A DNA stretch of 30,147 nucleotides from a virus (Duplodnaviria > Heunggongvirae > Uroviricota > Caudoviricetes). Below the pieces are notes generated by a model, which made no database searches, was not told where the DNA came from, and saw nothing but the letters and a program-made list of their open reading frames with translations. How positions within the stretch are numbered: position 1 is the first letter of the stretch; the number at the start of each line of letters is the position of its first letter. Where the stretch lies: positions 1 to 30,147 of IMG/VR virus record IMGVR_UViG_2778261179_000014. One strand, 5' to 3'. Shown in pieces: positions 1,419-20,852 of this stretch. The position numbers and the translations under genes were made by a program.

Positions 1419-3860
1419 TTAAAAATCAGCCTGACTCGGGATCAGTTTTTGCCAGATAGCTGAAACGTATTTTGCCTGGTAACGAGCGTCATCAAGTGCA
1501 TTATGGCGCTCACCTTCGAATGGAATAGCCGTTCTGGCATCGAAGTCTATGGCTTTCCCCAGCTCAACGATTGTGCGTACATCGCGATCGTTGTAGTAAC
1601 GCCACGGGCAGGGGATCCCCTGCCGTTCGTATGAACGGCGCAAAATCGTGTTGTCGAAGTTGGCTCCATTTCCCCAGACCTGAACAAAAAATTCACCGGA
1701 GTTTTCGTCGATAAATTCCCGCAATTGTAACAGTGCATCATCTAACGGGATTTCATCGGTCATAATGGCAGATTGCGCTTCGCGTGATTGCTTAAGCCAC
1801 CATTTAATGGTGTCCCGATCAATGACTCCGCCAGCAGTTTCCAGATCGATAGTCTTACTAAATTCCGGTCCCATATCTCCGGTTTGCGGATCGAAAAATA
1901 TTGCACCTATTGAGATGATCGGGGCATCAGGATTTTTTCCCATGGTTTCAAGGTCGATCATTAGATGGTCACACGTCCTGCTGGTGGATGTGATTTCGCG
2001 ATGACCGTTCACCTTAATTGAGTGATCTGCCGTCTCGCCAGTTTTATTATCGCTGGCGTGATGCTGATTGCCGCCAGGGTTCTCCTTGTGTGGATGTTCA
2101 GCGCCTTCCATTTCCTCCGGATCATTTTCCTGAACTTCAACCTGATTCTCTTCATCGAATGTTTCCTGGTATGTTGCGTCGCCCATCACCGCGCCACAAT
2201 CAGGGCAGTTGCCGCCACCGCTTTGACCGCAGGCGGTGCAGACTTTTTCCGGTTCCTGTTGCGCTACTGGTTCGGATTGTTTCGTTTCTGGCTCGTTTTG
2301 TAACGCATTTGGGCTGTTTTGTTCCGCTTTTTGGTCGTTCCGTTCCGATTCATGCTGGTTCTGGTTCACAGAATCGCGAGTCTGGATCCCCTTGACCCAT
2401 TTCGGATCATTAGGGTCGCTAATCCCCTCAACAAATTCACCACGCGATACAGCAAGTAACTTATCGGCGTCAGGCTGGCTGATATTGGCTGCCTGCATAA
2501 TTTTGTTTACTTCGTCAGCGGTGACTTTTACTTGGTTAGCGGAACTCACCTGCGACTGAGCATCCAGCGACTGCGCGTTCTGGCCATGTTCAGTTGTATC
2601 CGGTTCCATTGTTTCAGTTGTTGCCTGTTCACCTGCCATTGCGTCAGATGGTTGTGGTTTTTCTTCTTCTGTTTCACGCTTAGTAACCACCTCGCGGTTA
2701 ATTTCTTCCAGGATATCTTTTTCCGGCGTATGCCGGGCAGCTGTGAGAATTTCCTTGCTGGGGTTCTCGTGATCAGTTTCCGTCAAATAGGCGTTGATAT
2801 ACCCCTGAAGGCGTCCCGGGTAGTGATAAAATTCAGGGTGTGCGCTTCGGATAAGTGCAAAAATAGCGGCGCGGGAATAGTCCAGAATACCCGGGGTTGC
2901 ACGAAGTGCTGCGGACCATTCTTTGAACGGACTTTCTTTGTTCAGGACTACTTCTTTTGCGCGACGATAAACGCTGCCCGGAATTTCATAAATATTAAAA
3001 TCCATCGGAAGTGTGGCTGCTGCAATCTCCACATCCAGTGTGTCGAGGGTGTGTACTAAATTCGGATTGCGATCGGTTTTGTTCCCACCGCCAGCATTAG
3101 CACCGGAAGCCGTGCGGGTGATGCGTGAAACACGATTTCCTTTCATCCACTCTTTTGTCAGCAGACCCCGATCAGTGTAGTCAGCGTCCAGGTATGCTTC
3201 GAAAAAAGCAGTTATTAGTCCCAAGTCTGAATTACTAGGATTAGGGAAAACTTTGTCAGTGTCACGAACCAGTTTGTGGAGGTCGCGAATCTCCAGCGAG
3301 TCGAGCAGACTGGTTTTATGCGAAATAGCCAGGGCAGTAACAGCCGGTAGTTCTTCAGCCCGTGCAATGTGTAATGCCTGGAGTTCGTCGCGTGAAACGT
3401 GCGTTACTGGTTTTTCGCTGCCGTGTTGAGCAAGCCAACGAATGGGCAGTTCCTGACCGGAGACAGGCAGAAGCATGCTCTCCTCAATCTCAGTCATGTC
3501 TTCGCCGTTGATGTTGGTATTGTCAGTGCTAGCTGGTTTGCCCTGAACAGAGGGGGAAGGGCCGATAAATGTCATTGTGATGCCATCTTTCCCGCCTTTT
3601 TCATAGCGGTTGCAGAATTCAGTATCAAACACGCCTTCTGGCGGAAGGTCGTCAACAACGGGCAAATTGACGCGGACGGGTTTTTTAAAGTCGTCTTCAT
3701 CATAATCGTTGTCATCCATTGCGGTAATGCAGCGGGAGATTGCAACAGATAATTTTTTTGCTGTAGTCCAGTAAAAACCACCTTTAATTCCCAGGCGTTT
3801 TCTTACTTTGTCATTTTTTGCTTCGCAATATAGTGCAAATTCTTCTTTATCAGTGCTCAT
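1419..3860 (-). CDS. Large exonuclease with C-terminal DnaQ-like DEDDh 3'-5' exonuclease domain
   Basis: 813 aa. C-terminal about 200 aa carry Exo I (MIDLETMG), Exo II ([12 protein letters not shown]) and Exo III (HNALDDARY) motifs. Long acidic, low-complexity N-terminal region with a CxxC..CxxC cluster ([16 protein letters not shown]). Proteins of this architecture in E. coli prophages are often annotated exodeoxyribonuclease VIII-like; that is from memory and unverified. Confidence 0.8.
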
Positions 3861-3953: not shown

Positions 3954-4145
3954 TTAAAGACCTGCCGGGATTTCGATATTATCCTGGTGAATAACTTTAT
4001 CGACCGGGTAACAGTTACCGGGAATTTTCTGTTCGGTTGCTGCTGCCATACATTCCTGCATTGTTCTGTGAACACTGACTGCAATATCAACTGGCTCTCC
4101 GGAAACAAGAAAAACCGTCAGAATAAGTGCAAATACTGGATTCAT
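3954..4145 (-). CDS. Hypothetical small protein with hydrophobic N-terminus
   Basis: 63 aa from ATG at 4145 (AAGGA 8 nt upstream); the start overlaps the stop of the upstream gene as ATGA (translational coupling); N-terminus MNPVFALILTVFLVSG is hydrophobic. Confidence 0.4.
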   Translation of the reverse strand: MNPVFALILTVFLVSGEPVDIAVSVHRTMQECMAAATEQKIPGNCYPVDKVIHQDNIEIPAGL

Positions 4146-4330
4146 TGTGCACATCCTTTTGGCATCAGACGTAAACGGGCCAGCATTGAAACAATGCATA
4201 CTTTATTTAATAACTCCCGTTCGTGTTTTCTTTTGTTAATGGCCTCTTCAGTGAATACAGGATTACTGATAGTGACACCAATTTCAAAACAACCTTCAGA
4301 CGTATTAACGTTTGGTAATAACGTTTTCAT
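4142..4330 (-). CDS. Hypothetical small protein
   Basis: 62 aa from internal ATG at 4330 with GAGGG 7 nt upstream; coupled to the downstream gene by ATGA overlap. The longer track ORF (to 4435) lacks an RBS. Confidence 0.4.
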   Translation of the reverse strand: MKTLLPNVNTSEGCFEIGVTISNPVFTEEAINKRKHERELLNKVCIVSMLARLRLMPKGCAQ

Positions 4331-4868
4331 TATCGCGCCCTCAACAATGAGTTTTGTGATGCGGTGCCTGGTGCCTCCAGGTGACGTTAACCAGTTAACA
4401 ATTAACGCCGGATACAGAGAATCCACCCATAACACTGTTTTTGGTTTTAACTGTTCCGCGTGCGCTTAGCCGCATTCACCGCATCACAAAATTCACTTTA
4501 AAAATGGCGGCAGAGCAGTCACGGAGTAAAACTGATACCGCCAAACGTCACCAGAAAATTGATAACAGAGGGCGTTGCAGCGGGGTTGTCACTTAAGCGT
4601 ATGGTCAACCTGACAACCCGGTGTCCTCAACGGGGAAGGAATAACCCCGCCATACTTACCGCCGCGCCATTTCGCGGAGTGCCACAACCGGAAGCGCACG
4701 GTCGACGAAAATTTAACGACAGGCTATCTATAAACCAGCTACCTCGCCGTACGCTTTCGCGTTGTGTGCCTGCTTTTAACCACGTCAGGCGAGGTGGTTC
4801 CTGTTATTCCCCAACAACAAGAAATTTGTATAATCCGGATATCCCCAACAACGAGAAGAGTACTCAAC

Positions 4869-5324
4869 GTGATAGCAGAACTGTCAGCGGCTATGGCTGC
4901 GATAAAGGAGACAGCTGGTCTCGCTAAGGTTATTAATGACGCAAAAACGGATGCAGAAGTTAAAGCCGCAACTATTGAACTTCAGAACAAACTAATCACG
5001 CTTCAGGCGGAATGCTTCTCTCTTTGCGATGCGATCCGCTTTCGTGATGAAGAGATAATGCATCTCAAAGCAAAAATTGCAGAGACAGAAGATTTTCAGC
5101 GACAGGCGGAAGGTTACAAGCTTAACAAGCTTGATTCTGGAACCCTTGTATATTCCAAGAAGCAATTTATAGGCGATACTGAGATAACTGTGCATCTTTG
5201 CCCACAATGTTTTGGAAAAAAGGTAATATCTGTACTTCAGCCAATGGAAATAATGCGCTTTGATGCTCATTTTCGTACTTTTTGCCCCGCTTGCAATAAT
5301 AAGTTCTGGATGAACTCAAGATAA
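4869..5324 (+). CDS. Hypothetical coiled-coil protein with C-terminal CPxC...CPxC zinc ribbon
   Basis: Plus-strand ORF inside an otherwise minus-strand early-left region; perfect TATAAT at 4829-4834 upstream; candidate starts GTG 4869 or ATG 4893; N-terminal heptad-like region (ELQNKLITLQAE..., LKAKIAETEDFQRQAEG) and C-terminal HLCPQCFG...FCPACNNKF. Confidence 0.6.
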   Translation: MIAELSAAMAAIKETAGLAKVINDAKTDAEVKAATIELQNKLITLQAECFSLCDAIRFRDEEIMHLKAKIAETEDFQRQAEGYKLNKLDSGTLVYSKKQFIGDTEITVHLCPQCFGKKVISVLQPMEIMRFDAHFRTFCPACNNKFWMNSR

Positions 5325-5459
5325 TTAACCGTTTAAATAAGTTGGGACTATCCAGATTTTTAAAGAACGTACCGGATGCTCACCCGTGTCCGGCGCACGC
5401 ACTCCACCTCACCCGTGGAGAACTCCTTAATTACCAACCTTAGCTTCGTTGGTTAGCTA

Positions 5460-5678
5460 TTAGCGCGGGTATGTAATCATTCTGGCAATGCTTAATGCTG
5501 CTGCTTTTTCCAGCCTGGTGATATCCTGCTCCAGAGCGGACAGATTTTCAGCCTGCTTAGCCCTGGCTTCATTGGCCCATTTCAGATCCTGCGCTGCATT
5601 AATTTTCTGGCGCATCCACTCATAAAGTTCATCATCGGTATAGTCTGGCGCGATGATGACGGGTTCTCGTTTCTGCAT
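5460..5678 (-). CDS. Hypothetical early-left protein
   Basis: 72 aa, ATG at 5678 with GAGGAA upstream; last gene of a three-gene leftward cluster downstream of the OL region. Confidence 0.5.
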   Translation of the reverse strand: MQKREPVIIAPDYTDDELYEWMRQKINAAQDLKWANEARAKQAENLSALEQDITRLEKAAALSIARMITYPR

Positions 5679-5837: not shown

Positions 5838-6074
5838 TCACTCACCTGAGTTTCTTTCCAGCCAGCGACGGGCACCATTTTCGGTTTTAAACGTTTTGCT
5901 TTTGGTATACGTCATTGCGGTGAACGTGCCGTCCTGGTTTGGAAACACGCCGTACACCAGAGATTCGTTGTTGCCAAGATCGATAGTATCCATGTTGACC
6001 TCATTTCCCCTTAACGCCGGGGTAGCGGAACAAAAACCTGCTGCATAGTTATTAAAGTTGAACCCTGCCGTCAT
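5838..6074 (-). CDS. Hypothetical protein, first gene downstream of the OL/pL region
   Basis: 78 aa with GAGG 6 nt upstream of ATG 6074; alternative internal start at 5993. Not Arg-rich, so no resemblance to lambda N. Confidence 0.5.
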   Translation of the reverse strand: MTAGFNFNNYAAGFCSATPALRGNEVNMDTIDLGNNESLVYGVFPNQDGTFTAMTYTKSKTFKTENGARRWLERNSGE

Positions 6075-6270: not shown

Positions 6271-6918
6271 TTATAGGTTGAACTGCACACCTTTTGCTAC
6301 GGCAACAATTTTACACTCTGGCGTAAGCAAGGATGATTGATAGCGCGGATTGAGAGGGCTTAAATACACAAGTTTTCCATCAATAACTAATTTTTTTATA
6401 GTCATAGACGGTTCATTTGTAAGTGGATCTGGAACTATTACAGCGACGATACTGCCATTTTTATAACTCTCTCCTGGTCTTAGGATCACAGTGGCACCAA
6501 CCGGGATACTTGGCGACCCTGAGGGGTTATGCATAGTGTCATCAGGCATTGAAACGGCAAAATCACCTTCCACTACATCAAAGAATGTGGTGATCCTATC
6601 GACATTTCCCATTGTTTTCTCTCCTTCTAAGATTAGGAAAGAAATCGCGTCACCCCACGAAAAGTAGGGGATCTTGGTGCCTGGATTGCTCTGCACAAAA
6701 GATAGTTCAGGAGACGATACTCCATACAGGAGATAGGACTCAGTAGTTCCTAATGCCTGGGCTAACTTACTTAGAGCTTTGCTGCCGGGTTCGTTTAGAT
6801 CTTTCTCCCAGTACCCTATAGTAACCCCAGTCACGCCTGAAAGCTTACCCAGTTCTACTTGGGTGAGTCCCTTATCTTTTCTGAGTTTCTTAAGCCTGAT
6901 GCCAAGGCTTTCCATCAT
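6271..6918 (-). CDS. CI-like phage repressor (HTH plus S24 LexA-like peptidase domain)
   Basis: 215 aa; N-terminal HTH (GLTQVELGKLSGVTGVTIGYWE); C-terminal domain with Ser (AVSMPDD) and Lys (MTIKKL) typical of autocleaving repressors; divergent from a cro-like gene. Confidence 0.85.
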   Translation of the reverse strand: MMESLGIRLKKLRKDKGLTQVELGKLSGVTGVTIGYWEKDLNEPGSKALSKLAQALGTTESYLLYGVSSPELSFVQSNPGTKIPYFSWGDAISFLILEGEKTMGNVDRITTFFDVVEGDFAVSMPDDTMHNPSGSPSIPVGATVILRPGESYKNGSIVAVIVPDPLTNEPSMTIKKLVIDGKLVYLSPLNPRYQSSLLTPECKIVAVAKGVQFNL

Positions 6919-10606: not shown

Positions 10607-10760
10607 TTTTATATTGGCGAGGTAACGGGAGTTAAGTAGAATGGCTGCGGGTGCTTGAGGCTATCTGTCTCAGGCATGAACACCAAAGGCAGATAGAGAA
10701 AAGCCCCAGTTAACATTACGCGTCCTGCAAGACGCTTAACATTAATCTGAGGCTCAATCT

Positions 10761-10973
10761 ATGAACGGCAAATCTAGGTTAGCCTCTTACGTGCCGAAAG
10801 GCAAGGAGAAGCAGGCTATGAAGCAGCAAAAGGCGATGTTAGTCGCCCTGATCGTCATCTGTTTAACCGTCATTGTGACGGCACTGGTAACGAGGAAAGA
10901 CCTCTGCGAGGTACGAATCCGAACCGGCCAGACGGAGGTCGCTGTCTTCACAGCTTACGAACCTGAGGAGTAA
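10761..10973 (+). CDS. Mok-like upstream reading frame of the hok locus
   Basis: 70-aa ORF that includes the hok frame with a 19-codon N-terminal extension from ATG 10761. Confidence 0.4.
   Translation: MNGKSRLASYVPKGKEKQAMKQQKAMLVALIVICLTVIVTALVTRKDLCEVRIRTGQTEVAVFTAYEPEE
10818..10973 (+). CDS. hokD: Hok/Gef-family type I toxin (HokD/RelF-like, 51 aa)
   Basis: MKQQKAMLVALIVICLTVIVTALVTRKDLCEVRIRTGQTEVAVFTAYEPEE; AAGGAG RBS 9 nt upstream; single TM segment plus the conserved C and Y. Close match to my recollection of E. coli HokD. Confidence 0.85.
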   Translation: MKQQKAMLVALIVICLTVIVTALVTRKDLCEVRIRTGQTEVAVFTAYEPEE

Positions 10974-13147: not shown

Positions 13148-13507
13148 ATGCGTATAGAGTTTGTTTTGCCTTACCCGCCAACGGTGAACACCTACTGGCG
13201 GCGTCGTGGCAGCACATATTTTGTATCAAAAGTCGGTGAGCGTTATCGCCGTGATGTGGCGCTTATTGTTCGCCAGCAGCAACTGAAATTAAACCTGTCC
13301 GGAAGGCTGGCAATAAAAATTATTGCAGAGCCACCGGATAAGCGCCGTCGTGACCTGGACAATATCCTGAAGGCACCACTGGATGCACTGACGCATGCGG
13401 GGCTGCTCATAGACGACGAGCAGTTTGATGAAATTAATATTGTGCGCGGTCAGCTTGTTCCTGGTGGGCGGTTGGGGATAAAAATCACAGAACTGGAGTA
13501 CGCATGA
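13148..13507 (+). CDS. rusA: RusA-family Holliday junction resolvase
   Basis: 119 aa; conserved RusA features PPxxNxYWR near the N-terminus and DxDN catalytic motif (RRRDLDNILKAPLDAL). Confidence 0.85.
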   Translation: MRIEFVLPYPPTVNTYWRRRGSTYFVSKVGERYRRDVALIVRQQQLKLNLSGRLAIKIIAEPPDKRRRDLDNILKAPLDALTHAGLLIDDEQFDEINIVRGQLVPGGRLGIKITELEYA

Positions 13508-14193
13508 ATAACCAGTATTTACAGTTTGTTCGTGAGCAACTCATGATTGCCACCGCCGATTTGAGTGGATCAACAAAAGGGCAGCTTGAGGCCTGGCAGG
13601 AGAATGCCATGTTTGATACAGGGCGTTACAGGCGTAAAAAAATCCGGTACCGCGATGAAGTGACTGGAAAAATGATAACGCGGGATAATCCACCAATCCC
13701 GGGAAAGCAATCGCTGGCGAAGGGGACGTCAATTCCTCTGGTCAGTCCGGTTGAGTTTTCGACATCATCGTGGCGGCGGGCTGTTCTGTCTCTTGAAGAA
13801 CATCATAAAGCCTGGTTGTTGTGGTGTTACAGCGGGAGTATTTGTTGGGAATATCAGATCGCGATAACACAGTGGGCGTGGAATGAATTTAATACTCAAT
13901 CCGGTACCAGAAAAATTGCAGGGAAAACGCAGGAACGCCTGAAAAAATTAATCTGGCTGGCGGCGCAGGCAGTAAAAGCAGAACTTTTTGGTGGGGAAGG
14001 TTATGAATACCAGGAGCTGGCATTACTGGCGGGAGTGACAACTAAAAACTGGTCCAAAACATTTACTCGTCACTGGGTTGCAATGAAACACATTTTTCAC
14101 CGACTGGATAGTGAGGCTTTATTGTTTGTAATGAGAACACGTTCAAAACAAAAGGCGGCATTTTCAAAGCAAAGTGTTGCAAAAGTAGATTGA
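13504..14193 (+). CDS. Late-gene antitermination protein Q-like
   Basis: 229 aa, start overlaps the rusA stop; sits directly upstream of a terminator, tRNAs and the lysis cassette. Family assignment is by context and recall. Confidence 0.6.
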   Translation: MNNQYLQFVREQLMIATADLSGSTKGQLEAWQENAMFDTGRYRRKKIRYRDEVTGKMITRDNPPIPGKQSLAKGTSIPLVSPVEFSTSSWRRAVLSLEEHHKAWLLWCYSGSICWEYQIAITQWAWNEFNTQSGTRKIAGKTQERLKKLIWLAAQAVKAELFGGEGYEYQELALLAGVTTKNWSKTFTRHWVAMKHIFHRLDSEALLFVMRTRSKQKAAFSKQSVAKVD

Positions 14194-14403: not shown

Positions 14404-14479
14404 GGCCCTTTAGCTCAGTGGTGAGAGCGAGCGACTCATAATCGCCAGGTCGCTGGTTCAAATCCAGCAAGGGCCACCA
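14404..14479 (+). tRNA. tRNA with anticodon CAU, Ile2 (lysidine)-like
   Basis: Hand-folded cloverleaf: acceptor GGCCCTT/AAGGGCC, D-stem GCTC/GAGC, anticodon loop CTCATAA, T-arm GCTGG-TTCAAAT-CCAGC, encoded CCA. Resembles E. coli ileX from memory. Confidence 0.8.
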
Positions 14480-14480
14480 A

Positions 14481-14557
14481 CCGCCACTAGCTCATCAGGA
14501 AAGAGCGTCAACCCTTTAAGTTGAGTGTGCGAGGTTCGAGTCCCCGGTGGCGGTCCA
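14481..14557 (+). tRNA. tRNA-like gene with atypical anticodon loop CCTTTAA (anticodon UUU, Lys-type, isotype uncertain)
   Basis: Acceptor CCGCCAC/GTGGCGG (7 bp, C1-G72), D-stem GCTC/GAGC, anticodon stem TCAAC/GTTGA, T-arm CGAGG-TTCGAGT-CCCCG with one A-C mismatch, encoded CCA. Position 33 is C rather than the near-universal U. Confidence 0.55.
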
Positions 14558-14559
14558 GT

Positions 14560-14635
<76 letters not shown>

Positions 14636-14638
14636 TAT

Positions 14639-14713
<75 letters not shown>

Positions 14714-17177: not shown

Positions 17178-17660
17178 ATGTCAGGACCTCCGAAAACCCC
17201 GCCACGCCTGCATTTGATTCGAGGCAACCCCTCAAAGCGCCCCGTTAATGACCACAAAAAAACCGCTAAAAAGGATGAAAAAGGTCTTCCTAAAATTCCG
17301 CAGCATTTAGGGGCTCAGGGGAAGTACTGGTTCAGGCGAATGGCGGAAGAGCTGAATGCGGAAGGGATCATTTCTCAGCTTGATGCGCGTGCGCTCGAGT
17401 TGCTGGTGGAAGCCTACACCGAATATCGGCATCACTGCGAAACACTCGATGTTGAGGGGTATACCTACCGTACGGAAACGCAGAGCGGTGATGTACTGAT
17501 TAAGGCGCACCCCGCGGCGGCAATGAAAGCGGATGCCTGGAAGCGGATCCGGGCAATGCTTGCAGAGTTTGGTATGTCACCGGCAAGCCGGGCTAAAGTA
17601 AATATCGCCGGACCGGATGATGTTGATCCGCTGGCGGAGCTTTTAAAAGCGAGAGACTGA
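17178..17660 (+). CDS. Terminase small subunit (P27-family-like)
   Basis: 160 aa; stop overlaps the large-subunit start (ATGA); basic N-terminus; family call from recall. Confidence 0.75.
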   Translation: MSGPPKTPPRLHLIRGNPSKRPVNDHKKTAKKDEKGLPKIPQHLGAQGKYWFRRMAEELNAEGIISQLDARALELLVEAYTEYRHHCETLDVEGYTYRTETQSGDVLIKAHPAAAMKADAWKRIRAMLAEFGMSPASRAKVNIAGPDDVDPLAELLKARD

Positions 17661-19428: not shown

Positions 19429-19611
19429 ATGTTTCTGATAATTCTCGCGCCACTGGTGGGCGTGCTGGGTGCGCTTTTGCTGGCGTATGGTGCCTGGCTG
19501 ATTTATCCCCCGGCGGGTTTTGTTGTTGCCGGGGTGCTGTGCCTGTTCTGGTCGTGGCTGGTGGCGCGATATCTCGACCGTACACAGCCGTCTGTCGGCG
19601 GAGGTAAATAG
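19429..19611 (+). CDS. Hypothetical small membrane protein
   Basis: 60 aa, two hydrophobic segments, GAGGT RBS; between terminase and portal. Confidence 0.4.
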
Positions 19612-20852
19612 TGTTCTTTTCGGGATTATTTCAACGAAAAAGTGACGCGCCGGTGACCACGCCAGCAGAGCTGGCGGATGCCATCGGGTTGTCTTACGAC
19701 ACCTATACCGGAAAGCAGATCAGCAGTCAGCGGGCCATGCGACTGACGGCGGTTTTTTCCTGCGTCAGAGTGCTGGCAGAGTCGGTCGGGATGTTGCCCT
19801 GCAATCTGTATCACCTGAACGGCAGCCTGAAACAGAGGGCCACCGGCGAACGTCTGCATAAGCTGATCTCCACGCATCCCAATGGCTATATGACGCCGCA
19901 GGAGTTCTGGGAGCTGGTGGTCACCTGTCTGTGCCTGAGGGGAAACTTTTACGCCTACAAAGTGAAAGCATTTGGCGAAGTGGCTGAACTGCTGCCCGTC
20001 GATCCCGGTTGTGTGGTACCGAAGCTTAACAGTCGCTGGGAGCCGGTCTATCAGGTCACATTCCCGGACGGTTCCACGGATGTACTGAGCCAGGAAGATA
20101 TCTGGCATGTGCGCACGCTGACGCTGGACGGTCTGGTGGGACTGAATCCCATCGCCTATGCCCGCGAGGCAATATCGCTGGCAGCAGCGACCGAAGAGCA
20201 CGGGGCCAGACTGTTCAGCAATGGTGCAGTGACGTCCGGTGTGTTGCGTACAGAACAGACGCTGTCGGATCAGGCTTATGAGCGCCTGAAGAAAGATTTT
20301 GAGGAGCGTCACACCGGGCTTGGCAATGCTCACCGCCCGATGATCCTTGAGATGGGGCTGGACTGGAAGTCGATGGCGCTGAACGCCGAGGACAGCCAGT
20401 TCCTGGAAACCCGCAAGTTTCAGCTTGAAGAAATCTGTCGTCTGTTCCGGGTGCCGTTGCACATGGTGCAGAACACCGATCGCGCCACCTTCAACAATAT
20501 CGAAGAGCTGGGGCTGGGATTTATCAACTATTCACTGGTGCCGTATCTGACCCGCATCGAACAGCGGATCAACACCGGACTGGTACGAAAAAGTAAGCAG
20601 GGCGTTTATTACGCCAAATTTAACGCCGGGGCGTTACTGCGCGGGGATATGAAGTCCCGTTTTGAAGCCTACGCCACCGGGATCAACTGGGGAATTTACT
20701 CTCCCAATGACTGCCGCGACCTGGAAGATATGAATCCGCGTCCCGGTGGGGATGTCTATCTCACACCGATGAACATGACCACGAAACCCTCCGATGGCAG
20801 TAAAGCCGGTAAGCAGAAGGATAACGCCAATGCAGACGAAACAACGTCTTGA
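19611..20852 (+). CDS. Portal protein (HK97 family)
   Basis: 413 aa from GTG with GGAGGT RBS; follows the terminase; size and composition typical of HK97-type portals. Confidence 0.85.
   Translation: MFFSGLFQRKSDAPVTTPAELADAIGLSYDTYTGKQISSQRAMRLTAVFSCVRVLAESVGMLPCNLYHLNGSLKQRATGERLHKLISTHPNGYMTPQEFWELVVTCLCLRGNFYAYKVKAFGEVAELLPVDPGCVVPKLNSRWEPVYQVTFPDGSTDVLSQEDIWHVRTLTLDGLVGLNPIAYAREAISLAAATEEHGARLFSNGAVTSGVLRTEQTLSDQAYERLKKDFEERHTGLGNAHRPMILEMGLDWKSMALNAEDSQFLETRKFQLEEICRLFRVPLHMVQNTDRATFNNIEELGLGFINYSLVPYLTRIEQRINTGLVRKSKQGVYYAKFNAGALLRGDMKSRFEAYATGINWGIYSPNDCRDLEDMNPRPGGDVYLTPMNMTTKPSDGSKAGKQKDNANADETTS

Follow-up and report, generated by a model that had tools for sequence, protein, structure and literature searches.

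A probable Rip1-type anti-phage cassette inside the dicBF operon of a Qin/Rac-like Escherichia coli prophage

The window analyzed here is the whole of a 30,147-nucleotide stretch of DNA (positions 1 to 30,147 of IMG/VR virus record IMGVR_UViG_2778261179_000014), and comprises the left arm and the morphogenesis region of a Qin/Rac-like lambdoid Escherichia coli prophage. The first-pass annotation of this DNA, made from the letters alone, had pointed out a plus-strand open reading frame (ORF) amid minus-strand neighbors, and this arrangement is confirmed, both dicB and ydfC being on the minus strand. We find that the 151-residue product of the ORF very probably belongs, as a divergent representative, to the Rip1 (ring interacting pore 1) family. 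The leftward genes around it are the dicBF operon (ydfA-ydfB-ydfC-DicF-dicB-ydfD), and the small cassette inserted there is likely to be a lysogen-expressed abortive-infection gene of the Rip1 type, which would be activated by the ring-shaped late proteins of superinfecting phages and would kill by means of pores. The Rip1 family itself has been known since 2026; what is new is a divergent member in a new slot, within dicBF. The homology of the protein and of its promoter region, the predicted fold, the conservation of residues, the anatomy of the cassette and its distribution in the population were all computed in this analysis, and the coordinates of the features are collected in Table 1.

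Family assignment of the 151-residue protein

The protein had at first not been placed in any family. Profile search and structure prediction now both point to Rip1. A profile built from 30 homologs and run against the sequences of the Protein Data Bank (PDB) gave a single strong match, to chain 9oox_L, ‘ring interacting pore 1 (Rip1)’, at E=1.8e-20 over residues 6–151; the next match was at E=0.42. The structure predicted by AlphaFold2 was compared to the PDB using Foldseek, which returned 9oox_M and 9oox_L (E of about 1.7e-7, probability 1.00, template modeling scores of 0.66/0.77) and nothing besides these below E=0.6. The root-mean-square deviation to 9oox_M is 3.2 over 122 columns, for a predicted model set against a solved structure. 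The title of entry 9oox is ‘Escherichia phage HK446 Rip1 in complex with the Enterobacteria phage T6 small terminase’. The function had also been described as uncharacterized, a description that no longer fits a family characterized in 2026.

Comparisons based on sequence gave a consistent picture of family membership. The protein matches phrog_1244 of the PHROGs collection (‘unknown function’) at E=1e-51, and this same group is matched by HK446 gp37 (2.2e-53), HK620 HkaP (7.9e-51) and JBD30 gp30 (2.7e-61), as well as by the PhiR29 protein (E≤1e-51). BLASTP alignments showed 27% identity to HK446 gp37 (E=5e-17) and 28% to gp30 of the Pseudomonas phage JBD30 (E=4e-19), and tblastn showed 31% identity to HK620 HkaP (E=3e-12). 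A word-indexed search identified 152 homologs across the Enterobacterales, all of them annotated ‘hypothetical’. An exhaustive profile search found 2683 clusters (at 50% identity) with E≤1e-3, of which 879 have E≤1e-10; among the matches listed, the clusters are mostly of approximately 145–175 residues and are aligned over nearly their full length. Just 20 or so clusters reach E≤1e-30, which places the window protein in a small subclade of this large family.

We note that Pfam yielded nothing above threshold for the protein, just noise from coiled-coil and zinc-finger families (DUF641, DnaJ_CXXCXGXG and TerY_C), and NCBIfam gave nothing usable. PADLOC 2.0 gave no match either; this miss is uninformative, because HK446 Rip1 and lambda SieB are likewise unmatched.

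The ORF is called identically in near-identical prophages by the Prokaryotic Genome Annotation Pipeline (PGAP), as WP_000559912.1, ‘hypothetical protein’. The N-terminus, MIAELSAAM, is conserved in homologs from many genera, which fixes the GTG start. The ORF is real and intact, and purifying selection acts on it: the ratio of nonsynonymous to synonymous substitution rates (dN/dS), measured against five diverged alleles, is 0.23–0.31. Evolution is faster in the C-terminal half (dN of 0.43–0.52) than in the N-terminal half (0.05–0.40), as would suit a variable sensor attached to a conserved effector.

The AlphaFold2 model has a mean predicted local distance difference test score of 89.8, and consists of predicted helices at residues 2–24 and 28–80 followed by a β-rich C-terminal domain, which contains a four-cysteine zinc ribbon (C111, C114, C139 and C142). 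These four cysteines are invariant in the 30 homologs and in the HK446, HK620 and JBD30 proteins; Y83, V94, Y95, L123 and Q124 are also invariant, including in HK446 and JBD30. The ribbon had earlier been described as CPxC-x21-CPxC, of which the cysteine pairs are correct and the spacing is not, the actual motif being CPxC-x24-CPxC. Rip1 and the window protein thus have in common phrog_1244, the length class, the predicted fold of two N-terminal helices plus a β/zinc-ribbon domain, and the four cysteines.

The primary description of Rip1 is reportedly that of Patel et al. in 2026, in Nature 651:1060, dealing with HK446 gp37 and a Pseudomonas aeruginosa prophage protein. A review (PMC13434031), a meeting report (PMC12908700) and a citing paper (PMC13601566) describe it as a single prophage-encoded defense protein that is not toxic alone. 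According to these three sources, escapers lie in portal genes in Pseudomonas phages and in small terminase genes in E. coli phages, and cryo-electron microscopy revealed an 11-mer small-terminase ring surrounded by 12 Rip1 subunits, with the ring contacted by the C-terminal half of Rip1 and the N-terminal part forming an amphipathic helix. The complex is described there as a pore that causes liposomes to leak dye and opens holes in cells, with premature lysis of infected cells as the outcome. Homologs are said there to be widespread in proteobacterial prophages, with the Pseudomonas rip1 gene lying between the genes for the small and the large terminase, in agreement with the position that we find for JBD30 gp30.

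The cassette, its promoter head and its distribution

In every locus that we examined, the homolog is in a prophage context and is antisense to the flanking phage operon. The slot itself varies: HK446 gp37 is between the anti-restriction gene/cIII and N, HK620 hkaP is between cIII and hkaQ/N, JBD30 gp30 is between terS and terL, and the PhiR29 homolog adjoins cI. In prophages of Edwardsiella, Klebsiella and Plesiomonas the homolog is likewise antisense, in the early-left region. The window gene resembles HK446 rip1 in being a single-gene prophage system, antisense to the flanking operon and headed by a sieB-type promoter region, but differs from the characterized genes in its location, within the dicBF operon of a Qin-like prophage that lacks N, rather than in the N-cIII slot or between terminase genes. 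This slot, between ydfC and DicF, is unusual and is new for Rip1. HkaP of HK620 (‘putative superinfection exclusion protein’) is a homolog whose gene is on the plus strand in the pL operon and carries the same promoter head; it differs in belonging to another subclade, and in not occupying the ydfC/DicF position.

The extent of the insert was defined using blastn, by comparison with the phages Tritos and vB_EcoS-640R1, which have the same operon without the gene. Homology to these phages stops at 4777 and restarts at 5369. The module had originally been taken to span 4331–5455; the true insert is 591 bp long (4778–5368), and comprises a promoter head, the rip1-like gene and a 3′ hairpin. Because homology to the gene-less phages runs to 4777, the segment 4331–4777 is operon backbone, and the minus-strand DicF within it belongs to the leftward dicBF operon and not to the plus-strand cassette. 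The insert contains a single ORF and no partner gene, and is located inside the dicBF transcription unit. In Tritos and 640R1 it is replaced by approximately 29 unrelated bp. We detected neither a target-site duplication nor a clean insertion joint at the cassette borders. Transposition was considered as the origin of the cassette and is not supported, since the empty site holds 29 unrelated bp and there is no duplication.

Two inverted repeats downstream of the gene, at 5402–5420 and 5433–5453, had been proposed as its terminators. Both repeats exist, but they are in the backbone, where they are also present in the gene-less phages, they have no U-run, and the terminator scan called neither of them; we have therefore rejected them in this role. 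A better candidate for the intrinsic terminator of the cassette is the imperfect hairpin that spans the stop codon and is followed by a run of five U. Other alleles have a different hairpin at this position. As a separate observation, positions 4832–4849 in the head and 5341–5358 in the tail of the cassette form an 18-nucleotide inverted repeat with 83% complementarity, based on the palindromes ATCCGGAT and GGATATCC; other alleles are followed by a similar tail, GGATATCCAGAT.

A comparison with related prophages had been suggested as a check on whether the slot is variable, and it is: the slot is empty in most of them, the cassette being found in 79 of 5426 complete E. coli genomes and its flanks in 4731. 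The prophages that carry it have different attachment sites (adjoining potC or adjoining yccA) and different immunity regions. In one of them the insert is 99.8% identical, with flanks that are merely 85.6% and 92.6% identical, which points to a recent exchange of the cassette as a unit. Other E. coli prophages have other rip1 alleles in the ydfC-DicF slot, one of them very divergent. Another in this slot, the allele of O103:H2 strain 12009 (2592–3046 of the locus examined), from a Shiga toxin-producing E. coli (STEC) lineage, is a chimera, in which the N-terminal half of another allele is joined to a C-terminal half identical to that of the window.

These properties are those of a lambdoid moron, in that the cassette has its own promoter (as judged by homology), a single ORF and, at the 3′ end, a predicted hairpin followed by a run of U; that some prophages have it and others, otherwise collinear with them, do not; and that it is exchanged as a unit. 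It differs from such morons in its head, which is not idiosyncratic but is a conserved promoter module common to several unrelated cargo genes.

Approximately 100 bp upstream of the ORF (4768–4868) are homologous to the region upstream of sieB in phages lambda and P22. SieB is classically a prophage-expressed exclusion function. The head also precedes, in conserved form, the Rip1 genes of other genera and other slots, HK446 and HK620 among them, and it is likewise found upstream of unrelated cargo, namely a 144-residue protein in SfIV (p36), a protein of the BssS family in Salmonella phage F1055, and a 93–95-residue protein in phiES15 and MS2 LVA. The window gene is like sieB in its homologous upstream region (hairpin element, box 1, −10 and box 2), in its antisense position in the early-left operon, and in the apparent logic of expression in the lysogen. 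The proteins themselves are unrelated, in contrast; homology to SieB was looked for and rejected, BLASTP against lambda SieB having given no alignment at E≤100, and neither an Esc-like internal product nor a sas antisense RNA was identified at the cassette.

The TATAAT noted in the first-pass annotation is exactly where it was placed, and its interpretation as a promoter is now backed by homology to P22: in a P22 record, the part matching the segment from box 1 to the −10 bears the annotation ‘promoter; sieB RNA start site’. The hexamer aligns with GATAAA in P22 and lambda, TAAAAT in HK446 and GATAAT in other alleles, and is a better −10 match than the GATAAA of P22. A purine run equivalent to the Shine-Dalgarno-like sequence of the window is present in all the aligned heads. 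The suggestion that this is an independent accessory gene, running against the early-left operon, is thereby strengthened, its promoter region being homologous to the lysogen-active sieB promoter of P22 and lambda.

At the start of the head is a near-invariant element that can form two alternative hairpins, and which is conserved upstream of lambda sieB, P22 sieB, HK446 rip1, HK620 hkaP and other cargo genes. RNAalifold found only invariant pairs in this element and no evidence of covariation; the Plesiomonas element has one compensatory ACCGC/GCGGT change, which is anecdotal. Solo copies of a 32–37-bp hairpin element (GCCTGCTTTTAACCACGTCAGGCGAGGTGG), with no cargo downstream, occur in vB_EcoS-640R1, in PPompW phages and in Evi, for example directly upstream of ydfC (3810–3846 of the 640R1 locus examined). 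Such copies suggest that the element is either a recombination joint or an independent functional element.

The two 13-nucleotide direct repeats on either side of the −10, here called box 1 and box 2, are present as first reported and are the sole two exact matches in the window. Allowing up to 2 mismatches there are 6 matches in the window compared to 1.5 expected; taken as a repeat, the boxes extend to 16 nucleotides with 94% identity, 34 bp apart. Nearly all of the heads that we examined have them at conserved positions, and the two boxes co-vary, three versions being seen: the window group, SfIV and F1055 have two copies of CCCCAACAAC (some copies showing single-base differences), lambda, P22, HK446 and HK620 have two of CCCCTACAG, and Salmonella phage MS2 LVA has two of CCACAGTCAA. 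It is clear that the twin boxes are not a matter of chance. Their first-pass interpretation as a regulator-binding pair is a hypothesis that these data neither favor nor disfavor. We further suggest, as a speculation that we think more likely wrong than right, that the sieB-type head is a portable regulatory switch, consisting of the hairpin element and the co-varying twin boxes together with a putative factor that reads them, which would serve interchangeable lambdoid exclusion or defense cargo (SieB, Rip1, the BssS-like protein and at least two small proteins), and that the Rip1 subclade described here may sense a ring other than the terminase or portal.

Proposed function and alternative explanations

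The gene had been put forward as a candidate for phage defense or exclusion, and such a role is probable by virtue of its homology to the experimentally characterized Rip1. For expression, trigger, oligomerization, pore activity and protection, the model that follows relies on homology to published Rip1. In the lysogen, the Rip1-like protein would be made constitutively and would be harmless. When a superinfecting phage reached late gene expression, its small-terminase or portal ring would be bound by the variable C-terminal domain, and the bound ring would act as template for a Rip1 ring of about 12 subunits, whose N-terminal helices would create a pore across the inner membrane. Permeabilization of the cell before progeny mature would make the infection abortive.

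The resident prophage encodes both a small terminase and a portal, which are the types of ring that trigger Rip1, and this raises the question of how it escapes killing itself. Because the prophage has these two genes, the antisense placement of the cassette may serve to silence it on induction: strong leftward transcription of dicBF would, we infer, shut off the antisense rip1-like gene, and the resident terminase and portal rings would be spared.

A number of points weigh against a defensive function of this kind. Identity to the characterized Rip1 proteins is just 26–28%, the window protein is in a distinct enterobacterial subclade, and we know of no experimentally studied member of that subclade. 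At 151 residues the protein is among the shortest of the family, and lacks the C-terminal tail that most homologs, including the characterized Rip1, carry after the zinc ribbon. The amphipathicity of the N-terminal helix is modest: residues 1–22 are the most hydrophobic stretch (mean hydrophobicity H of about 0.4) and have a hydrophobic moment (μH) of 0.29–0.34, residues 2–24 being predicted as helical; such values are compatible with a helix that inserts into the membrane without establishing one. The consensus promoter scan made no call at the TATAAT, because the −35 (TATTCC) is weak, and the strict terminator scan made no call at the cassette. The locus can decay, as shown by the related allele of O103:H2 12009, in which the deletion of 1 bp puts the N-terminal helix out of frame, leaving a 115-residue remnant as the sole PGAP annotation. 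Finally, the account of Rip1 used here is second-hand, being drawn from the review, the meeting report, the citing paper and a PDB title cited above, and the trigger, oligomer state and pore activity that we attribute to the window protein are carried over from it by homology.

Several of these points would also be expected if the window gene were a Rip1 homolog that is no longer defensive, either as silent or decaying cargo or as a truncated ring binder that does not form pores, in the manner of the Esc inhibitor of SieB. The short protein with no tail after the ribbon, the frameshifted sister allele, the weak −35 and the lack of both promoter and terminator calls all fit such a loss. We nevertheless regard it as unlikely. 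The ORF is intact and keeps every invariant residue of the family, its dN/dS is in the range given above, and the lack of a tail is less telling than it appears, as close homologs of 155 residues have tails that are equally short. In addition, the identical 151-residue allele is found at 99.8% DNA identity across diverged backbones, which suggests recent selection or spread.

Ring-activated defense does not have to work through pores. RAZR, a ring-activated zinc-finger RNase, is also a small immune protein with a zinc finger, and its assembly takes place around large rings of phage protein, including the portal (Zhang et al. 2026, PMC13017515). A Rip1 fold could by analogy have been adapted to a different trigger or effector, recognizing a ring that is neither terminase nor portal, or serving not as a pore but as a regulator or nucleic-acid binder of the zinc-ribbon type, and the high divergence of the C-terminal domain and the shuffling of domains between alleles, as in the O103:H2 chimera, could be read in this way. 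This seems to us very improbable, however, as the helical N-terminal half, the part of Rip1 that forms the pore, shows the strongest conservation within the family, and a protein of 151 residues cannot accommodate a further effector. The Pfam, NCBIfam and PDB profile searches revealed neither a nuclease domain nor any other enzymatic one. RAZR has an RNase effector and a 24-meric assembly, whereas the window protein has no RNase domain in these searches, and its sole significant PDB match is Rip1.

It could also be argued that a cassette inserted inside the dicBF unit between ydfC and DicF, and transcribed against it, acts mainly in cis, with convergent or antisense transcription modulating DicF/DicB read-through, processing or levels and the protein being secondary, but this too seems very improbable, because the gene family occurs in quite different slots (N-cIII, beside cI, between terminase genes), the coding sequence is under purifying selection and the same head drives unrelated cargo elsewhere, so that the protein is the selected product.

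The reading of the cassette as a Rip1-type abortive-infection gene gives a likely function to a protein that PGAP calls hypothetical. It extends Rip1 to Qin/Rac-like E. coli prophages of bovine, porcine and enterotoxigenic/Shiga toxin-producing (ETEC/STEC) strains, and implies that the dicBF operon can host a defense cassette. It also makes the classic sieB promoter an expression module common to several unrelated accessory genes, so that the sieB-type head could help to find further prophage defense genes. The allelic series, with its conserved N-terminal half, its variable or shuffled C-terminal half and one frameshift, would provide natural material for mapping trigger specificity.

The surrounding prophage

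The features of the cassette and of the prophage around it are listed in Table 1. The flanking operon is identified as dicBF because of the Rfam match to DicF at 4505–4556 and the Pfam match to DicB. The cI gene is followed by cro, a cII-like gene and replication genes, all of them rightward.

Table 1. Features of the rip1-like cassette, followed by those of the surrounding prophage
Feature	Position	Strand	Basis or remark
Inserted cassette (moron): promoter head, rip1-like gene, 3′ hairpin	4778–5368 (591 bp)	+	blastn breakpoints
rip1-like coding sequence, GTG start, 151 residues (product very probably of the Rip1 family)	4869–5324	+	PGAP WP_000559912.1, phrog_1244, dN/dS
Near-invariant upstream element GCCTGC-TTTT-AACCAC-GTCAGGCGAG-GTGGTT, two alternative hairpins	4768–4799	+	start of head
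Weak −35-like hexamer TATTCC, 18 bp upstream of −10, overlaps box 1	4805–4810	+	alignment to P22 promoter
Box 1, CCCCAACAACAAG	4809–4821	+	
−10 hexamer TATAAT of sieB-type promoter	4829–4834	+	
Box 2, CCCCAACAACGAG	4843–4855	+	predicted 5′ leader if transcript starts near 4841
Purine-rich Shine-Dalgarno-like GAGAAGAG, 8 nt before GTG	4853–4860	+	
Imperfect hairpin across stop codon, then AUUUUU (U5); candidate terminator	5305–5361	+	repeat search; fold −15 kcal/mol, z=−2.4
Integrase	1–1119	−	
Excisionase	1088–1366	−	
ExoVIII-like protein, 813 residues	1419–3860	−	
ydfD/DUF1482	3954–4199	−	
dicB	4142–4330	−	Pfam DicB 5.7e-39
DicF small RNA, full length	4505–4556	−	Rfam RF00039, 73 bits vs gathering score 48
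ydfC	5460–5678	−	
ydfB	between ydfC and ydfA	−	
ydfA/DUF1391	5838–6074	−	
LexA-type cI repressor	6271–6918	−	
Resident small terminase (Terminase_4)	17178–17660	+	
Resident HK97-type portal	19611–20852	+	

An Rfam E-value scan of 4331–5460 found nothing beyond DicF and a sub-threshold match to STnc100, both on the minus strand and in the backbone. The latter match lies between DicF and dicB (4353–4493; 38.8 bits against a gathering score of 47, E=1.2e-6), and coincides with a 19-nucleotide inverted repeat (4348–4366 and 4477–4495, 95% complementary); it may represent a structured part of the dicBF transcript.

Some further observations concern the rest of the window. The product of the ExoVIII-like gene combines an Exonuc_VIII region with a C-terminal Rv2179c-like 3′-5′ exoribonuclease domain (Pfam, 6.2e-68). 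Downstream of the replication genes, on the plus strand at 10649–10823, is a toxin-antitoxin RNA locus of the hok/sok type (Rfam sok, 110 bits). Four tRNA genes (Met-CAT, Lys-TTT, Thr-TGT and Gly-TCC) are clustered on the plus strand at 14404–14713, directly downstream of the gene for the Q antiterminator (13504–14193).

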